From NCBI RefSeq assembly GCF_013315695.1, contig NZ_CP054353.1: 64,000 bases of DNA; one strand, given 5' to 3'. Position numbers and translations under genes: made by a program. The notes under the pieces are model-generated. The model did no database searches and had not been told where the DNA came from. It saw nothing but the letters and a program-made list of their open reading frames with translations. Positions within the stretch are counted from its first letter, which is position 1; every line of letters starts with the position of its first letter. Origin of the DNA: Escherichia coli (lineage in GTDB: Bacteria > Pseudomonadota > Gammaproteobacteria > Enterobacterales > Enterobacteriaceae). Positions 4,652-27,126 of this stretch are shown here, one piece after another.

Positions 4652-7507
4652 TTACAGCGCGGCGATAACAGCCTGCTGTTCAATCAGCTTAGCTTTCGCT
4701 TCTGCATAGCCTTCCAGCTTCTCACGCTCTTTCGCGATGACCGCTTCCGGTGCGCGGGCGACAAAGCCTTCATTCGCCAGCTTGTTCTCGATACGGCTGA
4801 TTTCGCCTTCGATCTTCGCCACTTCTTTCGCCAGACGCGCCAGCTCATCTTCTTTGTTGATGAGGCCAGCCATCGGGATCAGCAGCTCTGCGCCGTCGAT
4901 GATCTTCGTAACGGAAACCGGACCTTTGTCATCGGCAGGCAGCACGGTGATGCTTTCCAGACGCGCCAGGGTTTGCAGGAAGCCACGGTTTTCATTTACG
5001 CGACGTTCTGCATCCGCGCTGCAACCACGCAGCAGCAGCTCCAGCGGTTTGCCCGGCGCGATATTCATTTCTGCACGGATGTTACGTACGGCAACGATCG
5101 CCTGTTTCAGCCACTCGGTGTCGGCCAGCGCCGCTTCATCAACCTGAGACGCATCATACTGCGGGAACGGCTGCAGCATGATGGTGTCGGCAGTGATACC
5201 GCAAAGTACTTTCACACGCTGCCAGATGGTTTCGGTGATGAACGGAATGATCGGATGCGCGAGGCGCAGCAGACCTTCCAGTACAGTCACCAGCGTATGG
5301 CGAGTACCGCGCAGTTCGGCGTCTGTTCCACCGTTCATTACCGGCTTGGTCAGCTCCAGATACCAGTCGCAGAACTGGTTCCAGGTGAACTCATACAGAA
5401 TGCCTGCGGCGATATCGAAGCGGAAGCTGTCCAGCGCTTCGCGGTACGCTTTGATGGTCTGGTTGAACTCCGCCAGAATCCAGCGATCCGCCAGCGACAG
5501 CGTCATTTCACCGCCGTTAAAGCCGCAATCCTGACCTTCTGTGTTCATCAGCACAAAGCGGCTGGCGTTCCACAGCTTGTTACAGAAGTTACGGTAACCT
5601 TCCAGGCGCTTCATATCCCAGTTGATGTCACGACCGGTAGAAGCCAGTGCCGCCAGGGTGAAACGCAGCGCGTCAGTACCGTGCGGCTCAATACCGTTCG
5701 GGAACTGCTTCTCGGTGCGCTTACGGATTTTGTCCGCCAGCTGCGGCTGCATCATATTGCCGGTACGTTTCTCCAGCAGTTCCGGCAGCGAAATACCGTC
5801 AACCATATCCAGCGGGTCAATAACGTTACCCTTGGATTTGGACATCTTCTGACCTTCGTCATCACGAATCAGACCAGTCATGTAAACGGTGTGGAACGGC
5901 ACCTGCGGTTTGCCATTTTCATCTTTGATGAAGTGCATGGTCATCATGATCATGCGGGCAATCCAGAAGAAGATGATGTCGAAGCCGGATACCATCACGC
6001 TGGTTGGGTGGAACTGACGCAGGGCGTCGGTGTTTTCCGGCCAGCCAAGGGTAGAGAAGGTCCACAGCGCAGAAGAGAACCAGGTGTCGAGAACGTCTTC
6101 GTCCTGACGTAGAGCAACGTCGGCACCGAGGTTATTTTCTTTACGCACTTCATCTTCGTTGCGGCCAACATAAACGTTACCCGCTTCGTCGTACCATGCC
6201 GGGATACGGTGACCCCACCACAGCTGACGAGAGATACACCAGTCCTGAATATCGCGCATCCAGGAGAAGTACATGTTTTCGTACTGCTTCGGTACGAACT
6301 GAATGTCGCCGTTCTCAACCGCTTCAACCGCCGGTTTCGCCAGTACATCGGCACGCACGTACCACTGGTCGGTCAGCATTGGTTCGATAACTACGCCGCC
6401 ACGGTCGCCGTAAGGAACGGTCAGGTCGTGCGGTTTAATTTCTTCCAGCAGGCCGAGTGCGTCAACCGCAGCAACGACCGCTTTACGTGCAGCAAAACGC
6501 TCGAGTTTCTGGAACTCTGCCGGGATTTCGCTGGAATAAACGTCAGATTCGTTACCTTTGGTATCGAACACCTGGGCGCTTTCACGGATATCGCCGTCAA
6601 AGGTCAGGATGTTGATCATCGGCAGCGCGTGACGTTTACCCACTTCATAGTCGTTAAAGTCGTGCGCCGGAGTGATTTTCACGCAGCCGGTGCCTTTTTC
6701 CATGTCGGCGTGTTCGTCGCCAACGATCGGAATACGACGGTTAACCAGCGGCAGAATGACATATTTGCCAATCAGATCTTTGTAACGCGGATCTTCCGGG
6801 TTAACGGCTACGCCAGTATCGCCCAGCAGGGTTTCCGGACGGGTAGTCGCGACCACCAGATAATCTTTACCGTCTGCGGTTTTCGCACCGTCAGCCAGCG
6901 GATAGCGGATGTGCCACATCGAACCTTTCGATTCGCGGTTTTCCACTTCCAGGTCAGAGATAGCGGTGCGCAGTTTCGGGTCCCAGTTTACCAGGCGTTT
7001 GCCACGGTAAATCAGGTCTTCTTTATATAGACGAACGAAAACTTCTTTCACCGCATTGGACAGGCCTTCGTCCATCGTGAAGCGTTCACGCTCCCAGTCG
7101 ACGGAGTTGCCGAGACGGCGCATCTGACGGGTAATGGTGCCGCCGGACTCCGCTTTCCATTCCCAGATTTTGTCGATGAAAGCTTCGCGGCCGTAGTCGT
7201 GACGGGTTTTACCTTCTTCTGCGGCAATCTTGCGCTCAACGACCATCTGGGTAGCGATCCCAGCGTGGTCAGTACCGACCTGCCACAGGGTGTTTTTGCC
7301 CTGCATGCGCTGATAGCGGATCATGGTATCCATGATGGTTTGCTGGAAGGCGTGACCCATATGCAAACTGCCGGTGACGTTCGGCGGCGGGATCATGATG
7401 CAGAAACTCTCCTGGCTTTCATCGCCATTAGGCTTAAAGTAGCCCTGCTTTTCCCAGTGCTCGTAAAGCGGCTGTTCGATATCTTGTGGGTTATATGTCT
7501 TTTCCAT
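4652..7507 (-). CDS. valS: valine--tRNA ligase
   Basis: 951 aa with class I synthetase HMGH and KMSKS motifs and C-terminal coiled coil. Confidence 0.97.
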
Positions 7508-15270: not shown

Positions 15271-15355
15271 GCCGAAGTGGCGAAATCGGTAGACGCAGTT
15301 GATTCAAAATCAACCGTAGAAATACGTGCCGGTTCGAGTCCGGCCTTCGGCACCA
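15271..15355 (+). tRNA. leuX: tRNA-Leu (anticodon CAA)
   Basis: 85-nt sequence gccgaagtggcgaaatcggtagacgc...ggcacca with long variable arm and CAA anticodon loop, ending in CCA. Confidence 0.92.
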
Positions 15356-15357
15356 TC
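15313..15357 (+). repeat. Direct repeat copy 1 (leuX 3-prime end, attachment-site core)
   Basis: 45 bp identical except one mismatch to 25708-25752. Confidence 0.8.
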
Positions 15358-15889
15358 TACATTTTCCTCTTGAAAAACAAGCGATTAAGTAAATTATTTT
15401 ACCTTTTTTGCCTATCTAATCTTCACTGATTCTTTCCCGTATAAAAGCCACTGTGATTGTTAATGGCTTTGGTATGTTAGCACGCAGTGGCAAGTAGTTA
15501 CCAGGCTCAACCTTGTACTGCATACGCCAGTATGCCCCCCTTTGAAGCAGGAAGACGCGCCGCCGTCTCTAAACCTATGCCAAGCACTTTTAACCGTTCC
15601 ACACTTAGTTCGGCGTTCCGTTCAAGCCTGTCGTGGTGACTTACCACGAATAAACAAGCAAATTCGCGGTATGGTATTCGTTACGAGAGCGGTTAACTGA
15701 CAAGACTCCTGTGATACGCCTAAGGTGCTTAAATTGATGCGTCCAACATGGCACAAAAGGCGGTCTATCGTTTAATTTTGCTCCATACATCAACTGGCAT
15801 TGCCAGCTGTATGGGGCTTGGTCTGCTGGTTCCGATGAACGGATTAAATTGCTAAGATGCAGACCATAAGCCATAAGGCGGAGATAAGT

Positions 15890-17098
15890 ATGAAATCTGT
15901 AGAACTATTTGCCGGTGCTGGTGGCTTGGCTATGGGTTGCGAAATTGCTGGTTTTGAGCATCTTGCAGTCGTTGAATGGGATAAATGGGCCTGTGATACC
16001 GTTAGAGAGAACAAAAAGAATGGCTTTCCGCTGTTGTCTGATTGGGATCTTTTTGAGGGTGATGTAAGAGAATTTGATTGGTCGAAAATCCCTAAAGGGA
16101 TTGACCTTCTTGCGGGAGGGCCACCTTGCCAGCCATTTTCAATCGGTGGTAAGCACAAGGCTAATTCTGATTCGCGGGACATGTTTCCAGCGACAGCAGA
16201 AGCGATCAGGCAAATTCGCCCTAAGGCTTTCATCGTCGAGAATGTGAAAGGCTTAACACGGGCAACCTTTGCGAGCTATTTCCAGTACATCCAGTTACAG
16301 CTTGAGTTTCCAGAAGTAGCCCCGCGAAATGGCGAAGACTGGAGCGAGCATTTAAAACGCTTGCAGGAAGAAAAAACCAGTGGAAAGAACAAAGGGAGAG
16401 GGCTGACGTATAACGTTCTGGCTACGTTAGTCAATGCAGCAGACTACGGCATCCCACAAAAACGTGAGCGTGTCTTCATTGTTGGCTTCCGCGATGATCT
16501 TGAAATTGAGTGGTCGTTCCCTAAACCGACACACAGTTATGATGCACTCGTTTATGATCAGTGGGTTACTGGTGATTACTGGAAACGACATGGTTTAGAA
16601 ATGCCAACTGTTCCAAGCCAGATGGTTAACCGTATCGCAAAATTGCGTAAAAATCCTCCCGATACACTTCCGTGGAAAACTGTTCGAGATGCAATCGCGG
16701 ATTTGCCAGATCCTGAAACAAAGGCGGCAAAGATGATCCGGAATCATGCGTTCCAGGCGGGGGCACGAACTTATCCCGGTCATACCGGAAGCCCCTTAGA
16801 TCTGCCAGCTAAAACGCTCAAAGCAGGTGCTCATGGCGTTCCTGGGGGCGAGAACATGCTTGTTCGTGATGATGGCTCAGTACGCTATTTTACTGTGCGA
16901 GAAAGTGCCAGAATTCAAACATTTCCCGATAGTTATCGTTTTCACGGGAGTTGGACTGAAACTATGAGGCAGTTAGGTAACGCTGTGCCGGTTCATTTGG
17001 CGTATTGCGTTGCCAGCAGTGTAGCGGAAAAGCTGCTGACCTCTGAAATTGGGAACATCCTTAAGCAGGGTGGCAATTATAAAAGGGCTTCTGCATGA
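15890..17098 (+). CDS. DNA (cytosine-5)-methyltransferase, Type II R-M modification subunit
   Basis: Motif I FAGAGG, motif IV GGPPCQPFS, motif VI ENVKGL; start set at MKSVELF with GGAG RBS. Confidence 0.88.
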   Translation: MKSVELFAGAGGLAMGCEIAGFEHLAVVEWDKWACDTVRENKKNGFPLLSDWDLFEGDVREFDWSKIPKGIDLLAGGPPCQPFSIGGKHKANSDSRDMFPATAEAIRQIRPKAFIVENVKGLTRATFASYFQYIQLQLEFPEVAPRNGEDWSEHLKRLQEEKTSGKNKGRGLTYNVLATLVNAADYGIPQKRERVFIVGFRDDLEIEWSFPKPTHSYDALVYDQWVTGDYWKRHGLEMPTVPSQMVNRIAKLRKNPPDTLPWKTVRDAIADLPDPETKAAKMIRNHAFQAGARTYPGHTGSPLDLPAKTLKAGAHGVPGGENMLVRDDGSVRYFTVRESARIQTFPDSYRFHGSWTETMRQLGNAVPVHLAYCVASSVAEKLLTSEIGNILKQGGNYKRASA

Positions 17099-17745
17099 CA
17101 GGAAAGGTCATACCATTTAATCCACTTGATAAACAAAATTTAGGTGCCAGCGTTGCGGAAGCCTTATTGAGCAAAGATGCTCATCCTCTGGAGGAGTTAA
17201 CCTCATTTCAAGGAGCAGGGATTTACGCAATTTATTACACTGGCGATCATCCTGCTTATAGGCAACTGGCAGAACTGAATCGTGACGGGCAATTTCGATT
17301 GCCTATCTACGTGGGTAAGGCCGTCCCAGCAGGGGCGAGAATGGGGCTTACCAACCCTGATAAGGTTGGTAACGTTCTGTTTAGGCGCTTGAAAGAACAT
17401 GCAGAAAGTATTCGCGCAGCGGAAAATCTTTCGATTGAAGATTTTTATTGTCGATTTTTGGTTGTTGATGACATCTGGATCCCATTGGGAGAATCGCTGG
17501 TTATCTCTCGCTTTAAACCGATTTGGAATTCGTCTATTGATGGTTTCGGTAATCATGACCCAGGTAAGCATCGCTACACTGGTTTACGTCCTCGCTGGGA
17601 CTTTATGCACCCGGGGAGAGGATGGGCTCAAAATTTACGTGAGCGTGATGAAACTGTGGATGAACTCATTCGTGATTCTATACAGTATCTTCAGAATTTA
17701 CCGCCTTGCTTGGCTCAGAAATTTATCGAAGCTGAAGGCGATTAA
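17095..17745 (+). CDS. GIY-YIG family restriction endonuclease (Eco29kI-like)
   Basis: GIYAIYY ... YVGKA motifs; 216 aa; start overlaps the methyltransferase stop (ATGA). Confidence 0.6.
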   Translation: MTGKVIPFNPLDKQNLGASVAEALLSKDAHPLEELTSFQGAGIYAIYYTGDHPAYRQLAELNRDGQFRLPIYVGKAVPAGARMGLTNPDKVGNVLFRRLKEHAESIRAAENLSIEDFYCRFLVVDDIWIPLGESLVISRFKPIWNSSIDGFGNHDPGKHRYTGLRPRWDFMHPGRGWAQNLRERDETVDELIRDSIQYLQNLPPCLAQKFIEAEGD

Positions 17746-17866
17746 TCAGCAAATGATCATCGGAGGCATCTGCCTCCGAATGTGATTAAGCCTTGGTTGA
17801 CAAAGTGGTTGCTTAAAACATTAAGCGTTAATTTTCTGGCCCTCTACCTTCTGACGTGCATAATTC

Positions 17867-18442
17867 TCAAATATCAGGGAGTTGCAAGAACGACTTAAGT
17901 CGGTAGAAGGTTGCTTTGCTGATCTCTAACCTATCCTGGACCGCTGCTGGTGGTAATCCTCGTGCTAATAACTCACGTACTTGTTCAACGGTTGCTTTGA
18001 TCGGTCTGCCGCAATGCTTACCTTCCGACTGAGCTCGTTTGATTCCTGCGGCTCTACGCTCTGCGATTAGGTCTTTTTCCAGGCTGGCAAGTCCTGCCAT
18101 CATAGTGAGCATGGCTTTACCCACTGGTGTTGAAAGATCAAACCCCTCTCGCAAGCTGACAACCTTCACACCCTTCATTTGCAACATTTCAACAGTAGAT
18201 AGTACATCGATAGTGTTACGTCCCAAGCGGTTTATAGCAATCACGATCAGCGTATCGCCTTCTCGCACATAATTGAGTAGTTCAGCAAACCCTGGACGCT
18301 CTCCTGCCTTGATTGCACCACTCACCGCTTCATCACTAAACCAGCGAGTTACGCTATAACCAGCATCGGCTATCTGCTTCTTCTGGTTTTCAACGTTTTG
18401 ATCGCTGGTGGAAACTCGCACATATCCGATCACAGTTGTCAT
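17867..18442 (-). CDS. serine recombinase (resolvase/invertase family)
   Basis: N-terminal GYVRVSTSDQ catalytic serine motif and C-terminal HTH; 191 aa. Confidence 0.88.
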   Translation of the reverse strand: MTTVIGYVRVSTSDQNVENQKKQIADAGYSVTRWFSDEAVSGAIKAGERPGFAELLNYVREGDTLIVIAINRLGRNTIDVLSTVEMLQMKGVKVVSLREGFDLSTPVGKAMLTMMAGLASLEKDLIAERRAAGIKRAQSEGKHCGRPIKATVEQVRELLARGLPPAAVQDRLEISKATFYRLKSFLQLPDI

Positions 18443-18449
18443 GATGTTC

Positions 18450-18580
18450 TCTAAGTCTCAAAAGGTAGTGTCAAAATAATAGCTGTCTCAAAATTAAAGA
18501 TCAACCTTTTGAGACAAGGCGAAGCCGCATTCTGTCGTTGCGTCGGTGTGGTCTTATAAGGAGATGGTTTTGAGACTGGA
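18450..18580. promoter_or_regulatory. Candidate recombination (res-like) site upstream of the serine recombinase
   Basis: Four copies of GTCTCAAAA: two direct (18456, 18485) and two inverted (18507, 18568). Confidence 0.35.
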
Positions 18581-18681
18581 TAGCAGCGGTTTAGGAATAG
18601 AGGCTTGGAACGAGAGTATGGGGAGAATGGAAATTCGGAATGGGCGGTCAACTTATTGGGCGTGATTGCTCACGCCTTTGT

Positions 18682-19033
18682 TTAGATCTCAGAACACAGG
18701 CTCAGCGTGTAGAGTGCCGTTTCACCATCGTTGTTAGTTGGGCGCATAACGAAAACTGGATCACTGCCGTTGTCGATGTAAGTAACCGCTATTCCACCGT
18801 CTGGGGTGGCGTACATCTTCGCAATACTTTTCTCTCCAATGAAACCCAGCCGCCAGGTTTTACCACCCATGCTCACTTTCATGATTTTGTCCCGCACATC
18901 GAGGCGAGTTTCGACAGACGATTTTTGGCTACCAGAATCTATCTGCCCTTCCTGAATGGCCTTACAGGTGAATGTGGTTGCACTTGAGGCGAAGGGGGGG
19001 GACGAGCAGCGCCGCGAGAATCAATTTTTTCAT
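18682..19033 (-). pseudogene. Small secreted protein gene disrupted by a frameshift in a G8/C8 homopolymer
   Basis: ATG at 19033 encodes signal-peptide-like MKKLILAALLVPP, then the frame breaks at the C8 run (18994-19001); removing one C fuses it to ORF 18682..18897. Confidence 0.5.
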
Positions 19034-19213
19034 GGTCTTCCTTTTGGATACGAGTTAAGAGTTCGTCGGGAGACATTATAAAATCTTTAATTGATAAAAA
19101 CGATCAATTTCTATCGTATTGATCGATAAAATTGATCATAATTGAAACTATAAATCCTACGCTCAGTCGTTATGGATGAGGTTTTTTATAAGAGAACTCA
19201 ACGGGATGATGTT

Positions 19214-19420
19214 ATGAAAAGAGCAATGATGGTGATGTGTGGGCTACTGTTTTCACAGTTGGTAGCAGCAGGGCAGATCACAATGATCGATCCCCAGCAG
19301 GATACGACGGAGAATGGCAAGACGCTTTGCACCTACGAGAACAGCCAGTATGTTTTTACCTACGTCACTAAAGGGCAGTGCCCCTATGCAAAGACTTTCG
19401 ATACTCAGGATTCAGAGTAG
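19214..19420 (+). CDS. small putative secreted protein (about 68 aa, two Cys)
   Basis: Internal start MKRAMMVMCGLLFSQLVAAG gives a signal-peptide-like N-terminus. Confidence 0.4.
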   Translation: MKRAMMVMCGLLFSQLVAAGQITMIDPQQDTTENGKTLCTYENSQYVFTYVTKGQCPYAKTFDTQDSE

Positions 19421-20490
19421 AGGCTGCATAAAATAGGAAGTGTTGTTTAACTTCATGAAAAGACAGGTGTGCTTAGCACAAGCCTCCAACGGATTGATTG
19501 TTAATTCTTCTGATAACGGCACAGCGCAAGGCTTTACGCAAAGAGAGTGATAGTTACTATCTTGATGACTATGGCAATTTTCCCCCTGTAACAACGGCAT
19601 TCATTACCTGCTAATTACCAGCGGATTACGCGCCAGTTTGATGGGAATTAACTCAGGGTTATTGCATGGGGTAGTGTGGAGTGAGCAGGGTGACAGTCTA
19701 CCGTTGGGTGAAGGGCTGATAGGTAATCGACGCGAAGCGCCGGAACCATACTGTTATGCGCTGGCCTTGGTGCCAGGCTCACGCCGCGCATGAAAGATAG
19801 CCATTACAGGAGAGATAATTTTTGACAAGTTACCTTCATCAAAGGTGCTTCTCCTGTATAAATGCTTGTTATGCTCGCTATGCTCCCAAACACAAACCCA
19901 TTAAACCCAACTAACTTAAGGTTAGTTAATTGGTTTTCTCTCTCTCTTGGGCTACTACCGCCCAAACTTTGCTTAATGCCATACAGCGACTACGCCGCCA
20001 TTAACAACACTCCACAATGATCCAATGGCATTCCTGCTTAATGTCATCCACCGATCTTGATTAGCCACCAACCAAACAACCACCCTAAATCTTTTAGGCT
20101 GTCTGTTTATCTGGTGCAAGGTAGCTATGACATTACCATACGTGCAAACATCCCAAGCCAATCATCACTGATTGGCTCGTGCTGATGCACTTCAGTGCAG
20201 AGAGAGAATCTCTCTACTATTATAGCGTATTTAGTAGGTCCCTGTATTTAAAGGAAAAATTAGGGTGAAAATCGCCATTGTTCACTTTTTTTCTCAAGAA
20301 ATGGCGAGATGCTGTTCGTAAATGGGAGGCATGGCTGTCTTCTCTGGTGGCAAGTTCTACCACAAATTTTGATTGACAGCAACCATCTATTTCTGGTATA
20401 AGAAGCACTAATTGCAAAGCAAAAATGCAACTAATTGAAAATGACCAAAAATATTTCATGAGATCACCGTTTGGGTATTGACAAACGTTA

Positions 20491-20781
20491 GTGGTCTATG
20501 GTATTCTTAATACTAAGAAGGGGAGAAAACCTTCTGAACTTTTCAGCCCTGGGCAGGGTAACTGCCTGGGGCTTTTTGCATCCAAAATCCGAAGGAGGCC
20601 ATTATTGAAGTATTACAGCAGTGACCAGATTTTTAATGACCTGGTGAGCGGCGAAGTGAAACGCCACGTTATTTACGCATCTATGCAAGCAGCAAAATCG
20701 AGAGGGTATACAGACCGAATGGAAATGTTTCAATCTGCAATTATCCGTTATGACCAACACCGAAGGGAGAACACCAACTAA
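20491..20781 (+). CDS. small hypothetical protein; true start may be the TTG at about 20608 after the AAGGAGG RBS
   Basis: ORF 10 nt upstream of the 306-aa ORF; strong RBS aaggagg at about 20593. Confidence 0.4.
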   Translation: MVYGILNTKKGRKPSELFSPGQGNCLGLFASKIRRRPLLKYYSSDQIFNDLVSGEVKRHVIYASMQAAKSRGYTDRMEMFQSAIIRYDQHRRENTN

Positions 20782-20790
20782 GGAGGAACA

Positions 20791-21711
20791 TTGATTCAAG
20801 CATACGAAGACGGCTATTTTTACAGAGATACCCCGCACCACGATCACTGCCCGCTTTCAGCATTTTCCAGACCATCCCAGCAATTCATCGTTATTGATAA
20901 TGTTCTGTACGTTGTCGAAGTGGAAAGTGGTGAAATTCTTCACTACGACTCGACAGAGTATTTGCTTGATGGTGGCATTGTTCAGGATCTGCATTTGAGT
21001 TACTCGACAGCAGACACCGCCAAATCAAAACAGGCTCACCGTGAATACGCTAATAAGCTGGGCGACCTTCCAGGGAATGCAGCCTATAACGGGATCAAGG
21101 AATACGCAGACGTATTAAGCAAGCCAGATTTCAAGAAAGTATTTGCATTGTGTCAGGAAGTAGATAGACGCAATGTAGTGTTTATAAAACGTGCGGATTT
21201 GAGCATAATACTGAACACCACGCCGGATCATCTCAATCGTGTATTATCTGCTCTTGAACGTAAGCACTACATCAAAGTTGATAAAGCTGAACACCAGAAA
21301 GGAGTATTAAAACTGTGGGTTAATCCTTCGTTTGTCTGGAAGGGTGATTCAGCTAACCGCTACTTATCTGGATATTTGCAGGGCTTCCCAATCTTGGAAC
21401 GTAAACGCTCCACAAAACGTTCTGACGTGCTCGACACGCTCACGGCTGCTGCAATGGTTGCCTTTGATACCTGGCACATTGAACACGGTTATAAGGCCAA
21501 TCAGCCTCATTCTAATGAATGGTATGCAGAGATCACGATGTACGAAAACGCCTACGGCGAAGGGGTGAGGCTTGCAGCAGAAAATAAGACATTGAACAAG
21601 TTATTGAACCCGGCAACATCTGAGGGGGATTTCGTTTATGAGCTATTCACTACGGCACAATACAGGGAATACCTGCAAACATTGGCAAAACAAGTAAGGA
21701 GATTACACTGA
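20791..21711 (+). CDS. hypothetical 306-aa protein with possible winged-helix segment
   Basis: Long ORF with GGAGG RBS; no recognisable catalytic motif. Confidence 0.6.
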   Translation: MIQAYEDGYFYRDTPHHDHCPLSAFSRPSQQFIVIDNVLYVVEVESGEILHYDSTEYLLDGGIVQDLHLSYSTADTAKSKQAHREYANKLGDLPGNAAYNGIKEYADVLSKPDFKKVFALCQEVDRRNVVFIKRADLSIILNTTPDHLNRVLSALERKHYIKVDKAEHQKGVLKLWVNPSFVWKGDSANRYLSGYLQGFPILERKRSTKRSDVLDTLTAAAMVAFDTWHIEHGYKANQPHSNEWYAEITMYENAYGEGVRLAAENKTLNKLLNPATSEGDFVYELFTTAQYREYLQTLAKQVRRLH

Positions 21712-21995
21712 ACCAATGTTTTGTAATAAAGAAGCCAGCACAATACTTATTTGAACTAAATTAAGCAACTCTCATACACACCGCTCTTTTGGTGAGTTAT
21801 TTATTACTATCTTTAAGGTGATGAGTGTTTATACTGTATTAAATTATTATAAATAAGGGGATGGTGTATGATTACAGCTCTTTATTGGTGTTTGTTCTTT
21901 CAGTTTGCGCTGTATTTTTTGTCTAAATTAAATTTAAATTGAAAATTAGCCCTGATCTTGAAATAGTTCAGGGCTGGAATTTCTAAAAAATAACA

Positions 21996-22955
21996 TCAGT
22001 GTGCTTTTAGTTCATCTTTAGCTAATGAGTCATAGAGTATTTTTGTGAGCGGAGACTCTAAATAATCATCACTAAGTAGTTTAATAAAATGCTTTTGGGA
22101 TTCTTTTGTTTTTACGAGCAATTGTGTGCCGTCTTCACTTACAATTAAAACTGTTGAAAGATAGGTATGCTTGCTTACATAATCGATAATTTCTGGCACA
22201 TCAATTTTCCCCAGTACAGGTGAGTGTTTGGCAATTTTGGCAAGCTTCCTTGAGAAAGAAATTTCTTTTGCACTCTTCTCAAGGTGAGTAAGATCTTCGA
22301 TAAGCAATGAAGCTTTCAATGCTTCCAAAGCCACCGTTGCTTGAGCTTCAATAACCTGATGGAACTGCATCGTTATTTCTAAAGTTTTTTGATTTTTTAT
22401 CAGGAATTCGTCGTCTATAAGAGCCAAGTCATAATTATAATCTAATCGGAACACTTGGGTTGGCAATTCTTTTAAATACCCGTCTGCGTCTGGTATCAAG
22501 TTAAACAATTTTCGGCTTTGCTCAAAAACCATGAGGTTTGTTTTGTTCTTATACAATGACAAACACTTATTGTTGCCTCTTAACTGAATTATTATCCCTT
22601 TCACGTCAGTAAATTTATTATTTAAATCATAATAATCCTGAGAGTTAGGCGGTATGGCTATTGCATTTTTTATAAAATCAAACTCTTTTGGATGTTCTTC
22701 ATAATCAAATGCAAACAAGGCATTTTTTCTATCATCAAAATTCGAAAGGAGAGGAATGGTTAAATCCTCATTTGTCACAATGTCGTCGTAAAGCCTAATT
22801 TTGAATCCTTCAACAATTTTTGGTAAAGCTTCAGCATCTATTTTAGATAATTTTAATTCATAATTATCTTCAGTTTTAACTATAAAGATAATTCTTATAC
22901 CTGAGAAATTATCGAAAATTTCGGTGATTTGATTTTTAAAATTCACAGGGGTCAT
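21996..22955 (-). CDS. 319-aa soluble protein, KwaB-like (candidate Kiwa component)
   Basis: Co-oriented with and overlapping the membrane protein gene; size and order match the Kiwa KwaA-KwaB arrangement. Confidence 0.55.
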   Translation of the reverse strand: MTPVNFKNQITEIFDNFSGIRIIFIVKTEDNYELKLSKIDAEALPKIVEGFKIRLYDDIVTNEDLTIPLLSNFDDRKNALFAFDYEEHPKEFDFIKNAIAIPPNSQDYYDLNNKFTDVKGIIIQLRGNNKCLSLYKNKTNLMVFEQSRKLFNLIPDADGYLKELPTQVFRLDYNYDLALIDDEFLIKNQKTLEITMQFHQVIEAQATVALEALKASLLIEDLTHLEKSAKEISFSRKLAKIAKHSPVLGKIDVPEIIDYVSKHTYLSTVLIVSEDGTQLLVKTKESQKHFIKLLSDDYLESPLTKILYDSLAKDELKAH

Positions 22956-23572
22956 TATTTTTTCCTTGCTATGAAAACGTAGTCATCAAAAAAACTATAG
23001 AATACTTGATCGTCAACAGTCAGCACATCCATCGAGATTGCAATGACGTTTTTTACTTCACCACTTCCTGCATGAGAAATGTTAACTCTATACAACTTAT
23101 AACCGAAAAGCGCCAAAGTAGGATTCGCATAATACTTATCCGTTTTAATGAAAATTAAACCAATAACTACTATTAAGAGAAAGTACGCAATGTTTTTCTG
23201 AGGGTCATCAAAACTGAATCCCATAAAAGGTACTATGTAAGTTGCTAAGAAAGTCAAACTTTCATAGCTCTCACTTTGGCAAGCAGTGATTGTTACACAG
23301 TCAGCATTGTTGACCTTCGTCAATCCTTTAAACCTTCTATAGAAATAAAATGCTATTCCTATAAAAATTAAACAAATTATTGAGATTATGTTGCTGGAAG
23401 CTAATTGATAAAAACCTATAAAATGGCAGGAAGAGCCATAACAAAATGGGATTTTTGCGCTCAAAATGATAATAAAAACAAACAGCAACATTAAAGACAG
23501 TATGTATAGTCCCATCTTGTTGAATGTGCTTTTTCGTTTCATGTTATCCCCCAGTGATGAAATCATAATCAA
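22955..23572 (-). CDS. four-TM membrane protein, KwaA-like (candidate Kiwa component)
   Basis: 205 aa with four hydrophobic helices; AT-rich; stop overlaps start of downstream gene. Confidence 0.6.
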   Translation of the reverse strand: MIMISSLGDNMKRKSTFNKMGLYILSLMLLFVFIIILSAKIPFCYGSSCHFIGFYQLASSNIISIICLIFIGIAFYFYRRFKGLTKVNNADCVTITACQSESYESLTFLATYIVPFMGFSFDDPQKNIAYFLLIVVIGLIFIKTDKYYANPTLALFGYKLYRVNISHAGSGEVKNVIAISMDVLTVDDQVFYSFFDDYVFIARKK

Positions 23573-23826
23573 AACTTGATCATGTGAACATCAAAAGCAT
23601 ACCTTAAAGCACTGGTTTTTTGTACAGCAATCGGCAAATTCATGCGTACTATCGAACTTACAAGAGGACGCATAGTAGATTTTCTGATCCAAATTGCCAT
23701 CATGTACTTTTAATTCATGTAGAGTAGCCAATGAAGTATCAGCAATTACATGATTTTATTGTCTATTTTTTATGTTTTTTTGTAAAACACCAGAAGATTG
23801 AAAAGGGCCAATGAGGCCCCTTGGCG

Positions 23827-24078
23827 TTATTTACGGTTTTTGTTGGATTGAGCCAGCACGGAAGCAGCAAGCTGCTTGGTTAAAGTACTGGAACGTGGAT
23901 TATCCAGCGCCGCAGATGCTTTATGTTCCATTGCACCACTTGTCTGATTTGAGGAACCTTTTTGAGAGAGAGCTGAACCAGCAAGGCTCTTCTGAATTGC
24001 AGATGCGTTGGGGTTGTTTAGGGTTTGTGCTGCGACTGATGCGACTTTACTTGATGTTTGCTTTGAATTGTTAGCCAT
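23827..24078 (-). CDS. small S/A/Q/N-rich protein with internal repeats
   Basis: ORF with repeated KxxASxxAQ-like segments; start set at MANNSK. Confidence 0.35.
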   Translation of the reverse strand: MANNSKQTSSKVASVAAQTLNNPNASAIQKSLAGSALSQKGSSNQTSGAMEHKASAALDNPRSSTLTKQLAASVLAQSNKNRK

Positions 24079-24309
24079 TCTCAACACCTATTCAAGAAGT
24101 GAATTATTGAACATCTTGTATTTAAATCAAGAATGAATACAAGATGTAGTGTTAATGATAATCCTCACCGCTTCGCTGTGCAACGATGAAAAATCTCTTT
24201 ACTGGATAAAACTACAGTTTTAAAAATGTGCGGTATTTCTGCTTTCAAATTGGCTTAATGTGCATACATTTAGATGATACCACTGCGTTTTCTGATCGTT
24301 ATTCGTTCA

Positions 24310-25593
24310 CTATTTATCAGTTTTCTCACGTTGGGGCTCCGTCTCTATCTCTGGGTAACGTAATAGCTCGATGTATGGCTGTAGTTCAATCGGAGATGCT
24401 GCATTCTTGCTGTACGTCTTGAAACTTTCTGTAGAGCCGCGCTCATGACCCAAGAGAAGTGCGATCCGGTCTTCTGTAACTGGTTTTAACTTACCTCGTC
24501 CAACCCCCCCACGATCCAGAATCTGCGCCACTGCATGGCGTAGACTGTGAAAAACTTTCAACTCTGATCCTACTTCCCCCAATGCCTTACGTTTAGCCCT
24601 CGTAAAACGCTGTGAATGCCACGTAGAGCGCTTTCCATCTGCGCGGTCAGCTATCGACGCACGATAGAATAAAAAGCCGTTATGGGGCTTCTCACGCAGC
24701 GACAAAACCAACGGAGTGATCAGGCTATGCACCGGAATAATACGGGCTGCTGATTTGGTCTTCCCCTCCGTCACTTCGAAACATAACACCCCTTCAATCT
24801 CTCGGATGTTGGCTGCACGTAATGAACAAATTTCATTCAGGCGCATACCGCTATACATCCCGATCAGCGTTACATTTTGCATCTCTTCATCATTCGCCAT
24901 CACAGCGAACACCTTCGCCAATTCTCCAGGCTCAAATACTTCATAACTCACCTTGCTACTTTTGGCCTCCAGCGCATGACCGCGCCAGATGTTTTCTTGC
25001 GGTGCATCGTGGTAGCGATTACGGGCCAGATCCCAGATTTGAGCCAGTGCGCTGACATAGTTTTGTATGGTCTGTGGTGCTTTCTCCGTCTTGAGCTGAT
25101 CAAGCCAGCCTGTAACGGTGGTTCGGTTAACGTCACGAAGCTGAACATCACGCTTTTTCAGATGTTCTAAGAGCACTTCAACAGCCTTGTTTGTCTTCGA
25201 TAGCGTAGTGAGTTTGCGCTTCTCGCTGAACTGCAATAGATAAAGATCACGCATTTTCAGGAGGGATGGCACTCCTTGGGATTGGGTATTGCTCATGACA
25301 TGCTGAACAGGTGTTTCATGAACTCGGGCGCTAACTCTGCGTAGCTCTGCAATTGCCTGCTCAATCTTACTCCCTTCTCTTGGTTTGACCTGTTCCCGTA
25401 AACGTATCCATTCAACAGCGATAGCATCTCTGAACAATCGCGCCTGACGTATGTCACTTGTGCCAGTGCTCTTGACGAAGTAGCGCTTGTTGCCAAAAAG
25501 CGAGCGCATGTAAGCTGGAACGGTAATCCTTACCAGATAGTTTCCGCATGGATCTAAAACTAAGTAACGATCTCTCTTGAAACTCATGTTCAC
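24310..25593 (-). CDS. tyrosine-type site-specific integrase
   Basis: C-terminal catalytic region with HSLRH and LLGH motifs; adjacent to the distal direct repeat. Confidence 0.88.
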   Translation of the reverse strand: MNMSFKRDRYLVLDPCGNYLVRITVPAYMRSLFGNKRYFVKSTGTSDIRQARLFRDAIAVEWIRLREQVKPREGSKIEQAIAELRRVSARVHETPVQHVMSNTQSQGVPSLLKMRDLYLLQFSEKRKLTTLSKTNKAVEVLLEHLKKRDVQLRDVNRTTVTGWLDQLKTEKAPQTIQNYVSALAQIWDLARNRYHDAPQENIWRGHALEAKSSKVSYEVFEPGELAKVFAVMANDEEMQNVTLIGMYSGMRLNEICSLRAANIREIEGVLCFEVTEGKTKSAARIIPVHSLITPLVLSLREKPHNGFLFYRASIADRADGKRSTWHSQRFTRAKRKALGEVGSELKVFHSLRHAVAQILDRGGVGRGKLKPVTEDRIALLLGHERGSTESFKTYSKNAASPIELQPYIELLRYPEIETEPQREKTDK

Positions 25594-25707
25594 CCCGGCT
25601 ATTTTGTAAGGGCTTTTACATGGGGAAGTTTCCTGTGTAGATTGTTGGAGCGGCGAATTATTAGCAGTTGATTCAATAGCTTAGATCAGCTTGCTGGACA
25701 AGCGAAC

Positions 25708-25752
25708 ACCGTAGAAATACGTGCCGGTTCGAGCCCGGCCTTCGGCACCATC
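25708..25752 (+). repeat. Direct repeat copy 2 (partial leuX 3-prime end)
   Basis: accgtagaaatacgtgccggttcgagcccggccttcggcaccatc matches tRNA 3-prime end 15313-15357 with one mismatch. Confidence 0.8.
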
Positions 25753-25948: not shown

Positions 25949-27126
25949 ATGGCTCTGAGTGATGTGAAGGTTCGTTCGGCTAAGCCTGAAGCAAAAGCCT
26001 ATAAGCTGACCGACGGTGAAGGCATGGTTTTGCTGGTTCACCCTAACGGCTCCAAATACTGGCGGCTACGTTATCGCTTTGGCGGTAAAGAGAAGATGCT
26101 GGCATTGGGGAAATACCCCGAAGTGTCGTTGGCGGATGCCAGGGCACGCCGGGATGAGGCTCGTAAGCTTTTAGCTAATGGTGTCGATCCCAGTGAAAAC
26201 AAGAAAGCTGTTAAGGTAGAATAGGAACAAGAGGCGATAACGTTTGAAGTAGTCGCCAGAGACTGGCACGCCAGCAATCAGAAGTGGTCGGCATCGCATA
26301 GCGCTCGTGTTTTGAAAAGTCTGGAGGATAATCTCTTTACTGCTATCGGTAAGCGGAACATTGCGGAACTGAAGACGCGGGATCTTCTTGTACCCATTAA
26401 AGCAGTCGAGTCATCCGGGCGGCTCGAAGTTGCCGCCCGTTTACAGCAGCGTACTACCGCGATTATGCGCTTTGCCGTTCAGAGCGGCTTAATCGACTAC
26501 AACCCCGCGCAAGAGATTGCAGGTGCGGTTGCTACGGCGAAAAGACAGCACCGTGCAGCTCTTGAACTGAACCGTATACCTGAATTACTTCATCGCATAG
26601 ATCACTATTCTGGCAGACCGTTAACTCGACTGGCGGTTGAACTCACTTTATTGGTTTTCATCCGTTCGAGCGAGCTGCATTTTGCCCGCTGGTCAGAAGT
26701 AGATTTTGAAACGGCTATGTGGACAATCCCAGGTGAGCGTGAGCAACTGGAAGGAGTCAAGCATTCTCAGCGTGGCTCGAAGATGCGGACACCACACCTT
26801 GTACCTTTGTCGCGGCAGGCCCTAAGTATTTTGGAAAAGATCAAAAGCATGAGCGGAAATTGAGAGCTGATTTTTGTGGGCGATCACGATCCACGTAAGC
26901 CGATGAGTGAGAATACGGTGAACAAGGCTTTGCGCGTAATGGGGTATGACACGAAGGTCGAGGTTTGTGGGCATGGCTTCAGGACGATGGCTTGTAGTTC
27001 GTTGATTGAGTCGGGATTATGGTCGAGGGATGCGGTAGAGCGGCAGATGAGTCACCAGGAGCGTAGCTCTGTGCGAGCCGCTTACATCCATAAGGCGGAA
27101 CATCTTGGGGAGCGTAGGTTGATGTT
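25949..27126 (+). pseudogene. intB: P4-type integrase, fragmented and truncated by IS911
   Basis: N-terminus MALSDVKVRSAKPEAKAYKLTDGEG; reading frame broken into three ORFs; 3-prime end replaced by IS911 left end. Confidence 0.8.

Follow-up and report, generated by a model that had tools for sequence, protein, structure and literature searches.

In a 64,000-nucleotide stretch of Escherichia coli DNA (RefSeq assembly GCF_013315695.1, contig NZ_CP054353.1; the whole stretch is hereafter called the window and is numbered from its first letter), an array of short repeats lies in front of a gene for a small serine recombinase. With a probability of about 0.78, we conclude that this array is a res-type site for the adjacent recombinase, which would serve the resolution of multimers or cointegrates as well as autorepression of the recombinase gene. 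An original prediction, made from the sequence alone, had described four copies of a motif at this place and proposed them as the subsites of a candidate res site, possibly marking the recombination site of a cassette with restriction-modification (R-M) genes.

The motif GTCTCAAAA occurs exactly four times in the window, at 18455-18463 and 18485-18493 on the plus strand and at 18507-18515 and 18568-18576 on the minus strand, with no exact copy elsewhere on either strand. The four copies were thus correctly located by the original prediction, which understated the array: a fifth half-site with one mismatch (GTGTCAAAA, 18468-18476, plus strand) and a sixth with two mismatches (GTCTTATAA, 18551-18559, plus strand) bring the total to six, and most relatives have GTCTTAAAA or GTCTCAAAA at the position of the sixth. 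Matches with at most one mismatch were not enriched over the window as a whole (17 versus 18 expected). Their clustering was strong, with five such matches within 125 bp versus a maximum of two in 200 shuffles of the window. The array extends from 18455 to 18576 (122 bp), or from 18454 to 18577 when half-sites of 12 bp are counted, and lies directly upstream of the recombinase start codon (18442, minus strand). A literature search with the motif itself returned only unrelated primer and oligonucleotide matches.

On the minus strand, which also encodes the recombinase, the six half-sites line up as three dimer-sized subsites. Site I (9-8-9, inverted) is followed after 35 bp by site II (9-13-9, inverted) and, after another 8 bp, by site III (9-4-9, head to tail), with 12 nt left before the ATG. 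The features concerned are as follows:

18551-18576, minus strand: site I, the predicted crossover site, inverted repeat GTCTCAAAA-CCATCTCC-TTATAAGAC with an 8-bp spacer (half-sites I-L, 18568-18576, and I-R, 18551-18559)
18485-18515, minus strand: site II, accessory, perfect inverted repeat GTCTCAAAA-13 bp-TTTTGAGAC (half-sites II-L, 18507-18515, and II-R, 18485-18493)
18455-18476, minus strand: site III, accessory and gene-proximal, direct pair TTTTGACAC-TACC-TTTTGAGAC (half-sites III-a, 18468-18476, and III-b, 18455-18463)
18476-18504, minus strand: predicted sigma-70-like promoter, with -35 TTGATC (18499-18504), a 17-bp spacer and -10 TATTAT (18476-18481)
17867-18442, minus strand: small serine recombinase gene, 191 amino acids (aa), with a resolvase catalytic domain and a C-terminal helix-turn-helix (HTH)
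19391-19404, minus strand: pseudo half-site GTATCGAAAGTC+TT, sharing orientation and register with the left half of site I and forming the second end point of the deletion described below

Site I measures 26 bp between its outer G's, lies 109-134 nt upstream of the ATG and has TC as its central dinucleotide (18564/18563). Counted as 12-bp half-sites, it is 28 bp long (12+4+12) and site II 33 bp. The centers of sites I and II are 63.5 bp apart, which at 10.5 bp per turn makes ~6.0 helical turns (loci whose gap is 34 bp have 62.5 bp), and those of sites II and III 34.5 bp. Site III, with a repeat period of 13 bp, ends 12 nt ahead of the ATG. We searched for a cryptic inverted partner in site III and found none, and its half-sites were head to tail in all 19 loci compared.

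These loci came from E. coli relatives, from a scan of 100,044 species genomes that gave 12 usable loci (Buttiauxella, Enterobacter, Erwinia, Kosakonia, Citrobacter, Klebsiella, Mixta, Mangrovibacter, Pantoea, Biostraticola, and E. albertii) and from one Klebsiella record. The recombinase-family gene was found in 227 of 5426 complete E. coli genomes (~4%), and the E. coli relatives were of three kinds: the same leuX island as in the window (95-100% identity), islands at the thiM thiamine pyrophosphate (TPP) riboswitch (E. coli C, EC17CM13 and others; 87-92%), and a 65%-identical gene at the edge of tonB-yciI insertions, in ~180 genomes. Strains EcPF7, MS15047, and NCTC9080 were 100% identical to the window over 901 bases around the cluster. 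Six half-sites with identical spacings were present in 18 of the 19 loci, across ~12 enterobacterial genera, and only the I-II gap (34-35 bp) and the distance to the ATG (11-21 nt) varied. Conservation of the motifs next to homologous recombinases, on which the original prediction had made its case depend, was therefore found: those 18 loci keep the array in the same geometry beside recombinases that are 66-95% identical. The exception was Pantoea dispersa (L015), where an element of the insertion sequence (IS) family IS3 sits in site II and site III is kept head to tail. The IS3-family element of that locus (~5700-5960) has an OrfA beginning MSGKRYPEEFK, and neither site I nor site II was found within 6 kb.

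Over 108 half-sites, the consensus was again GTCTCAAAA (G103 T108 C91 T106 C86 A106 A92 A105 A108), with T2 and A9 invariant. Between two divergent groups of loci, with gene positions taken from a codon alignment, identity reached 87% in the half-sites, 50-68% in the spacers and 31% in the 60 bp to the left of site I, versus 77, 83, and 41% at codon positions 1, 2, and 3 of the adjoining recombinase gene. Constraint is therefore stronger on the half-sites than on the coding sequence. When every open reading frame (ORF) of the island was used in tblastn searches, the recombinase gene was the sole one that always accompanied the array, whether in leuX islands, thiM-riboswitch islands, tonB-yciI elements or sodB-adjacent elements. 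Genes to the left of the site, encoding a 116-aa, an 82-aa and a winged HTH (wHTH) protein, were common to a subset of loci only, and the R-M and Kiwa genes were confined to the same leuX island. Since the other island proteins are absent from many loci that bear the array, they can be ruled out as its cognate binders. A distant serine recombinase of Selenomonas ruminis (198 aa, L021; 28% identical), picked up through a shared C-terminal EISKATFY peptide, has the same EISKATFYR helix, and a site-I-like palindrome, GTCTCATAA-8-TTTTGAGAC (L021 6781-6806), is found ~200 bp downstream of its gene, which fits recognition of the motif by the EISKATFY(R) helix. The palindrome sits between the recombinase and a Wzz/CapD-type polysaccharide locus and may be an invertible-promoter or regulatory site.

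The locus of Erwinia typographi (L009, 5866-5892) contains a natural recombinant. A deletion of ~828 bp has removed the 116-aa and 82-aa genes: the sequence follows the minus strand of the window to GAGTGTCGAAAGTCT and from there runs on as CTCCTTATAAGACC, the right half of site I. The left end point reads GT(A/G)TCGAAAGTC-TT-TGCATA in the window and the Kosakonia locus (L010), a 7/9 match to the half-site. The resulting hybrid site is GTGTCGAAAGTC|TC|TCCTTATAAGAC, and the switch between parents falls at or within the central dinucleotide (window 18564/18563), that is, at positions 12/13 to 13/14 of the 26-bp site, with 1 nt of microhomology. We estimate the chance of an in-register 7/9 match together with an end point in the 2-3-bp center to be of the order of 1e-5. 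A serine recombinase that crossed site I over with a pseudo-site would leave such a junction, which, as a single event, suggests strand exchange in the past. Microhomology-mediated slippage was considered as another origin of the deletion and is unlikely, as only 1 nt is shared at the junction. The junction at the center of site I, the three dimer-sized subsites, their invariant geometry and the exclusive linkage to the recombinase gene all support the part of the original prediction that took the motifs for resolvase subsites of a res site.

Shuffling of adjacent DNA is a known role of res sites. Homology to the window stopped at the outer edge of site I in EC17CM13 (18577), Citrobacter, Buttiauxella and Mixta sp., and site I itself was 24-26/26 identical in these lineages. 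The breaks fit such shuffling without proving it.

A promoter under bound resolvase is a known arrangement for tnpR. The TTGATC-N17-TATTAT pair was the sole minus-strand promoter-like match between 17700 and 19200. Its -35 hexamer is within the spacer of site II, the promoter spacer covers II-R, and the -10 hexamer abuts III-a between sites II and III. Homologs keep a TTG and a TAnnnT or CATAAT hexamer at the same positions, and because the promoter elements keep their positions there, the spacer of site II is the best conserved of the spacers (68%). The pair is thus a likely promoter for the recombinase gene, and we infer that the same sites would mediate its autorepression. In addition, a (T/C)AGAATGC block is conserved in the I-II spacer (window 18516-18550; loci L005, L006, L016, L018, and L022). 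Together with the right half of site I, this block forms a second promoter-like pair, TTGAGA-N17-TAGAAT, which points at the recombinase gene and is weak in the window (ATAAGA / CAGAAT).

In Pfam, the recombinase matched Resolvase at E 4e-41. Its match to HTH_7 (E 1.3e-4) scored 22.4 bits, slightly short of the 23.8-bit gathering score. Aligned with gamma-delta resolvase and Gin, it had the catalytic residues Y7, R9, S11, D37, R72, and R75. With these counterparts of Tn3 Y6, R8, S10, D36, R68, and R71 and its C-terminal HTH, it is a small serine recombinase. Among solved structures, the best match was Gin (E 1.6e-28), with gamma-delta resolvase (E 2.7e-23) at about the same distance and Sin (E 7e-15) further off; 'DNA invertase' is what the family is called in PHROG and NCBIfam. 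The complete catalytic set (Y, R, S, D, R, R) is retained in all other homologs. Residue 71, equivalent to Tn3 D67, is D in every one of the more than 20 other homologs examined, including the Selenomonas and Neisseria relatives, and also at the equivalent position of gamma-delta resolvase and Gin. In the window it is N (codon AAC, 18230-18232, minus strand), as it is in the identical protein of EcPF7.

We propose that each 9-bp half-site would bind one C-terminal HTH domain and that three recombinase dimers would fill sites I, II, and III. Site I would be the place where both strands are cleaved and exchanged, at the central TC dinucleotide, while sites II and III would assemble directly repeated res copies on a supercoiled molecule into the synaptic complex, allowing deletion (resolution) only. 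In nature, the enzyme would act on a dimer, concatemer or cointegrate formed by the island in its excised, circular state, or on a tandem chromosomal array, and such multimers could arise by replication, transfer or homologous recombination. A lone res in an integrated island would be silent for recombination. With sites II and III occupied, RNA polymerase would be kept out and the gene repressed, and rare crossovers of site I with other res sites or pseudo-sites would reshuffle the DNA to its left. As the array has no partner site in the window and is neither a cassette boundary nor an attachment site, multimer or cointegrate resolution is the remaining role with a precedent.

The array and its recombinase are part of a 10.4-kb island at leuX, with the following other features:

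15271-15355: leuX, tRNA-Leu(CAA), whose 3' 45 bp are the repeat
15313-25752: leuX island, bounded by 45-bp direct repeats at 15313-15357 and 25708-25752
15857-17098, plus strand: cytosine-5 methyltransferase (Eco29kI-type M)
17095-17745, plus strand: Eco29kI-family endonuclease
18682-19033, minus strand: 116-aa ORF, frameshifted (PHROG 35183, function unknown)
19172-19420, plus strand: small ORF
between this small ORF and the wHTH gene: ~1.4 kb without clear genes
20791-21711, plus strand: 306-aa wHTH protein
21996-23572, minus strand: KwaB/KwaA (Kiwa)
between KwaB/KwaA and the integrase: a further small ORF
24310-25593, minus strand: DUF6538 tyrosine integrase

The defense cargo of the island thus consists of Kiwa (21996-23572) and an Eco29kI-family type II R-M system (15857-17745). 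The sibling islands of E. coli C (L002, 2877-14166) and EC17CM13 (L004, 3516-14601) sit at the thiM TPP riboswitch, a copy of which flanks them at either end, and have SIR2, TIR-domain, ImmA/IrrE and HigB genes in the R-M slot. There, homology is kept over the site and over the genes on its left, and the replacement DNA starts ~10 bp past the stop codon of the recombinase gene (window 17857-17859). The leuX islands, like the thiM islands, come with tyrosine integrases and attachment (att) repeats of their own, and site I is internal to both kinds of island.

This layout did not bear out the idea in the original prediction of a cassette that recombines at the motifs. The R-M genes are separated from the array by the recombinase gene, the cargo of sibling islands changes just past the recombinase stop codon and not at the cluster, and the whole island is bounded by the 45-bp leuX repeats and encodes its own tyrosine integrase. 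The search for an inverted or duplicated partner site that had been suggested found none in the 64-kb window at up to three mismatches. The R-M genes are instead swappable cargo beyond the 3' end of the recombinase gene, not bounded by the array.

Several observations weigh against a resolution site. The L009 junction is a single event, and its two parental sites differ in their central dinucleotides (TT versus TC); such a difference normally disfavors exchange by serine recombinases. The best solved-structure relative of the enzyme is an invertase, Gin. Site III is head to tail here, whereas in Tn3 and gamma-delta all subsites, including site III, are inverted. As to replication of the island, the 306-aa wHTH protein had no PHROG, NCBIfam or PDB match; it reached a sub-threshold 22.9 bits for Pfam HTH_Crp_2 (cut-off 27 bits), and its AlphaFold2 (AF2) model, with a pLDDT of 50, was unusable. 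As to a circular form, whole-island Logan contigs start and end in the att repeat, and we rejected them as evidence for circles because an assembler would give the same ends for an integrated island. Finally, the window enzyme has N at the position of Tn3 D67. The Tn3 D67N mutant showed no resolution in vivo and cleaved at 1.8% of the parental rate, although its authors deemed the residue non-essential (PMC2794168), and by analogy the window enzyme may be crippled or only weakly active. Together with the frameshifted neighboring ORF, this change suggests that the system is decaying in the window strain though its site is intact.

The D71N change would also suit an array that is an operator only, with the six half-sites serving autoregulation by a DNA-binding protein derived from a recombinase, or by the recombinase itself, and no recombination taking place at the locus in present-day islands, as would the promoter-like -35/-10 pair within the array and the presence of one copy per island without a partner in 64 kb. 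We regard this as unlikely. All other homologs keep the full catalytic set including D, site I is 60-120 bp upstream of the promoter and yet as conserved as the promoter-proximal sites, and its 9-8-9 crossover-site geometry would be superfluous for repression. The L009 junction at its center, moreover, suggests past strand exchange. A DNA invertase or deletion switch, in which site I recombines with a distant partner to flip or excise a segment such as the R-M cassette, is suggested by the match to Gin, by the database names and by the frequent location of such genes next to one of their sites. It is very unlikely, as no second element like site I, II or III was found at up to three mismatches in the 64-kb window or within 6-9 kb on either side in relatives, and flanking DNA was found in both orientations at no locus. 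Furthermore, the accessory architecture of three dimers is a hallmark of resolvases, not of Hin/Gin sites, and cargo replacement begins beyond the 3' end of the recombinase gene.

The recombinase and its sites come last, next to chromosomal genes, in the tonB-yciI and sodB-adjacent elements, as expected if the enzyme integrated and excised the element at site I, acting as attP or attL. The one comparison available for a yciI-type element placed the start of core-genome homology 425 bp beyond site I. With the chromosome junction that far away, we rejected site I as an attachment site, and the tyrosine integrases and att repeats of the leuX and thiM islands, internal to which site I lies, leave this possibility very little room. 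Hardly any credence is due to the repeats being iterons, a replication origin or the sites of another island regulator (the wHTH or 116-aa protein), for which their shortness and close spacing speak, as does an HTH protein of a sibling island that matches phage replication-initiator families (PHROGs). The wHTH, 116-aa and 68/82-aa proteins are absent from many loci with the full six-site array, a mixture of inverted and direct repeats at dimer-sized spacing is not iteron-like, and no further copies were found near the wHTH gene, where a search for iteron or origin repeats also gave nothing convincing.

The array can be compared with recombination sites already described. Tn3 res is laid out as 28/22/34/5/25 bp, in agreement with its total of 114 bp, which gives center distances of 53 and 34.5 bp; the half-site motif of gamma-delta is TGTCYNNTA, and the half-site here also begins GTC. 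The window array shares with these elements the three dimer-sized subsites (122 bp here versus 114 bp in Tn3), a site I of 28 bp as in Tn3 with 26 bp between outer G's as in gamma-delta, a site II of 31 bp versus 32 bp between outer G's (33 versus 34 bp with 12-bp half-sites), a promoter inside res and a II-III center distance of 34.5 bp, the Tn3 value being calculated from its subsite sizes. It differs in the I-II center distance, which at 63.5 bp versus 53 bp is one helical turn longer, in the central dinucleotide (TC, with CT or AG in relatives, versus AT), and in its host, an integrase-borne island without transposase. Invertase sites are single 26-bp sites that occur twice in inverted orientation and are assisted by a Fis-bound enhancer, and the hix half-site is TTATCAAAAACC. 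The Hin/Gin/Pin group resembles the window system in its small serine recombinase with a C-terminal HTH, in providing the best PDB sequence matches and in an A-rich half-site; three adjacent subsites without a partner, with the site I spacing of resolvases, set the array apart from it. The array lies directly upstream of the gene and has site III nearest to it and site I farthest away, the polarity of Tn3-type systems (PMC7157771; PMC12217951). I-II distances of 4-7 turns occur and phasing matters (PMC12217951), and the ~6.0 turns found here are an integral number within that range. Comparison with known res sites, which the original prediction had advised, thus gave Tn3-like sites I and II and a site III unlike that of Tn3.

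An accessory site made of two head-to-tail recombinase motifs is instead found in the Sin/beta systems (PMC2428073), which resolve replicon multimers of Staphylococcus plasmids. Sin res is 86 bp long, with two dimer sites and a site for HU/IHF in the I-II spacer, whereas the array here has three dimer sites, an extra inverted site II being placed between site I and the head-to-tail pair, and so is not of the Sin type. Similar in setting is Salmonella genomic island 1 (SGI1; Res/S027), with a resolvase and a three-subsite res on an integrative island, site III by the start codon and a promoter inside res; this promoter and its occlusion are predictions (PMC12217951). Restored SGI1 res was an active Tn3-like system whose main effect was the rapid elimination of island multimers, and SGI1 relatives have a toxin-antitoxin (TA) or R-M module beside the res gene (PMC12217951). 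Unlike the window array, SGI1 res is 107 bp long with a 22-bp I-II spacer and was aligned to Tn3 and gamma-delta, and SGI1 is a 27-43 kb island, mobilized by IncC, with known oriV, oriT and repA, while the 10.4-kb island has no identified replication or transfer function.

The array thus appears to be an ordinary kind of element with an unusual layout of subsites, a variant of res. In the literature that we searched, which did not include Rowland et al. (2002), the main res site compilation, neither this layout nor the recombinase family was found described. It is possible, if doubtful, that the family is an intermediate one, combining a Tn3-like site I and inverted site II with a Sin-like site III, and that site I crossovers between islands reshuffle defense modules. 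Mouw et al. (2008) proposed that site III of Tn3 has the function that site II fulfills in Sin, with opposite motif orientations (PMC2428073), and a Tn3-like site II beside a Sin-like site III would, if true, directly support this equivalence. A three-dimer res with a head-to-tail site III would also be a test case for how accessory sites build a synaptosome. Our reading proposes a function for a conserved non-coding block and a 'recombinase family protein' in many Enterobacterales. It would mean that small integrase-borne defense islands carry a resolution module in the style of plasmids and transposons, which would imply a circular stage that forms multimers. An orthogonal tool for resolution could be made of the compact 122-bp site and the 191-aa enzyme, given the D71 allele rather than N71.

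Some further features of the island were recorded. GC content was ~30-34% over the Kiwa genes versus ~45-49% elsewhere in the island, and a scan with Rfam found only the tRNA-Leu. The 116-aa ORF is intact in E1739, E. coli C and other genera. Between its stop codon and site I lies a GC-rich hairpin, GGGCGTGATTGCTCACGCC (18658-18677), which is conserved in E. coli C and variant in EC17CM13 and is followed by a T-run on the plus strand only. Past the distal att repeat (26312-26863 onward), we found a degraded intB-like tyrosine integrase and then an IS3-family pseudogene. These older integrase remnants point to insertion of the island between leuX and an older leuX island (tandem accretion).

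Among the E. coli yciI-type loci, the palindromic site I arms of L005 (9529-9554) and L006 (9528-9553) enclose opposite central dinucleotides, the spacers reading GGAAGTCC and GGACTTCC in the direction of the gene, and the AG/CT alternation is also seen among other genera. A near-identity search of plasmids gave no match. At the protein level, relatives with 47-60% identity were found on small plasmids and on a gonococcal conjugative plasmid, and the region upstream of the gonococcal gene had no such array. The same search returned two Klebsiella 'plasmids' at 77% identity, which actually carry chromosomal purR-sodB DNA; sodB-purR is an alternative island insertion site according to the SGI1 study (PMC12217951). 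On the plasmid-labeled K. pneumoniae p2B17602 (L022; NZ_CP084170.1, 79204-91776), punR, purR, and sodB lie beside the 77%-identical recombinase and a full res, and the element encodes a major capsid protein.

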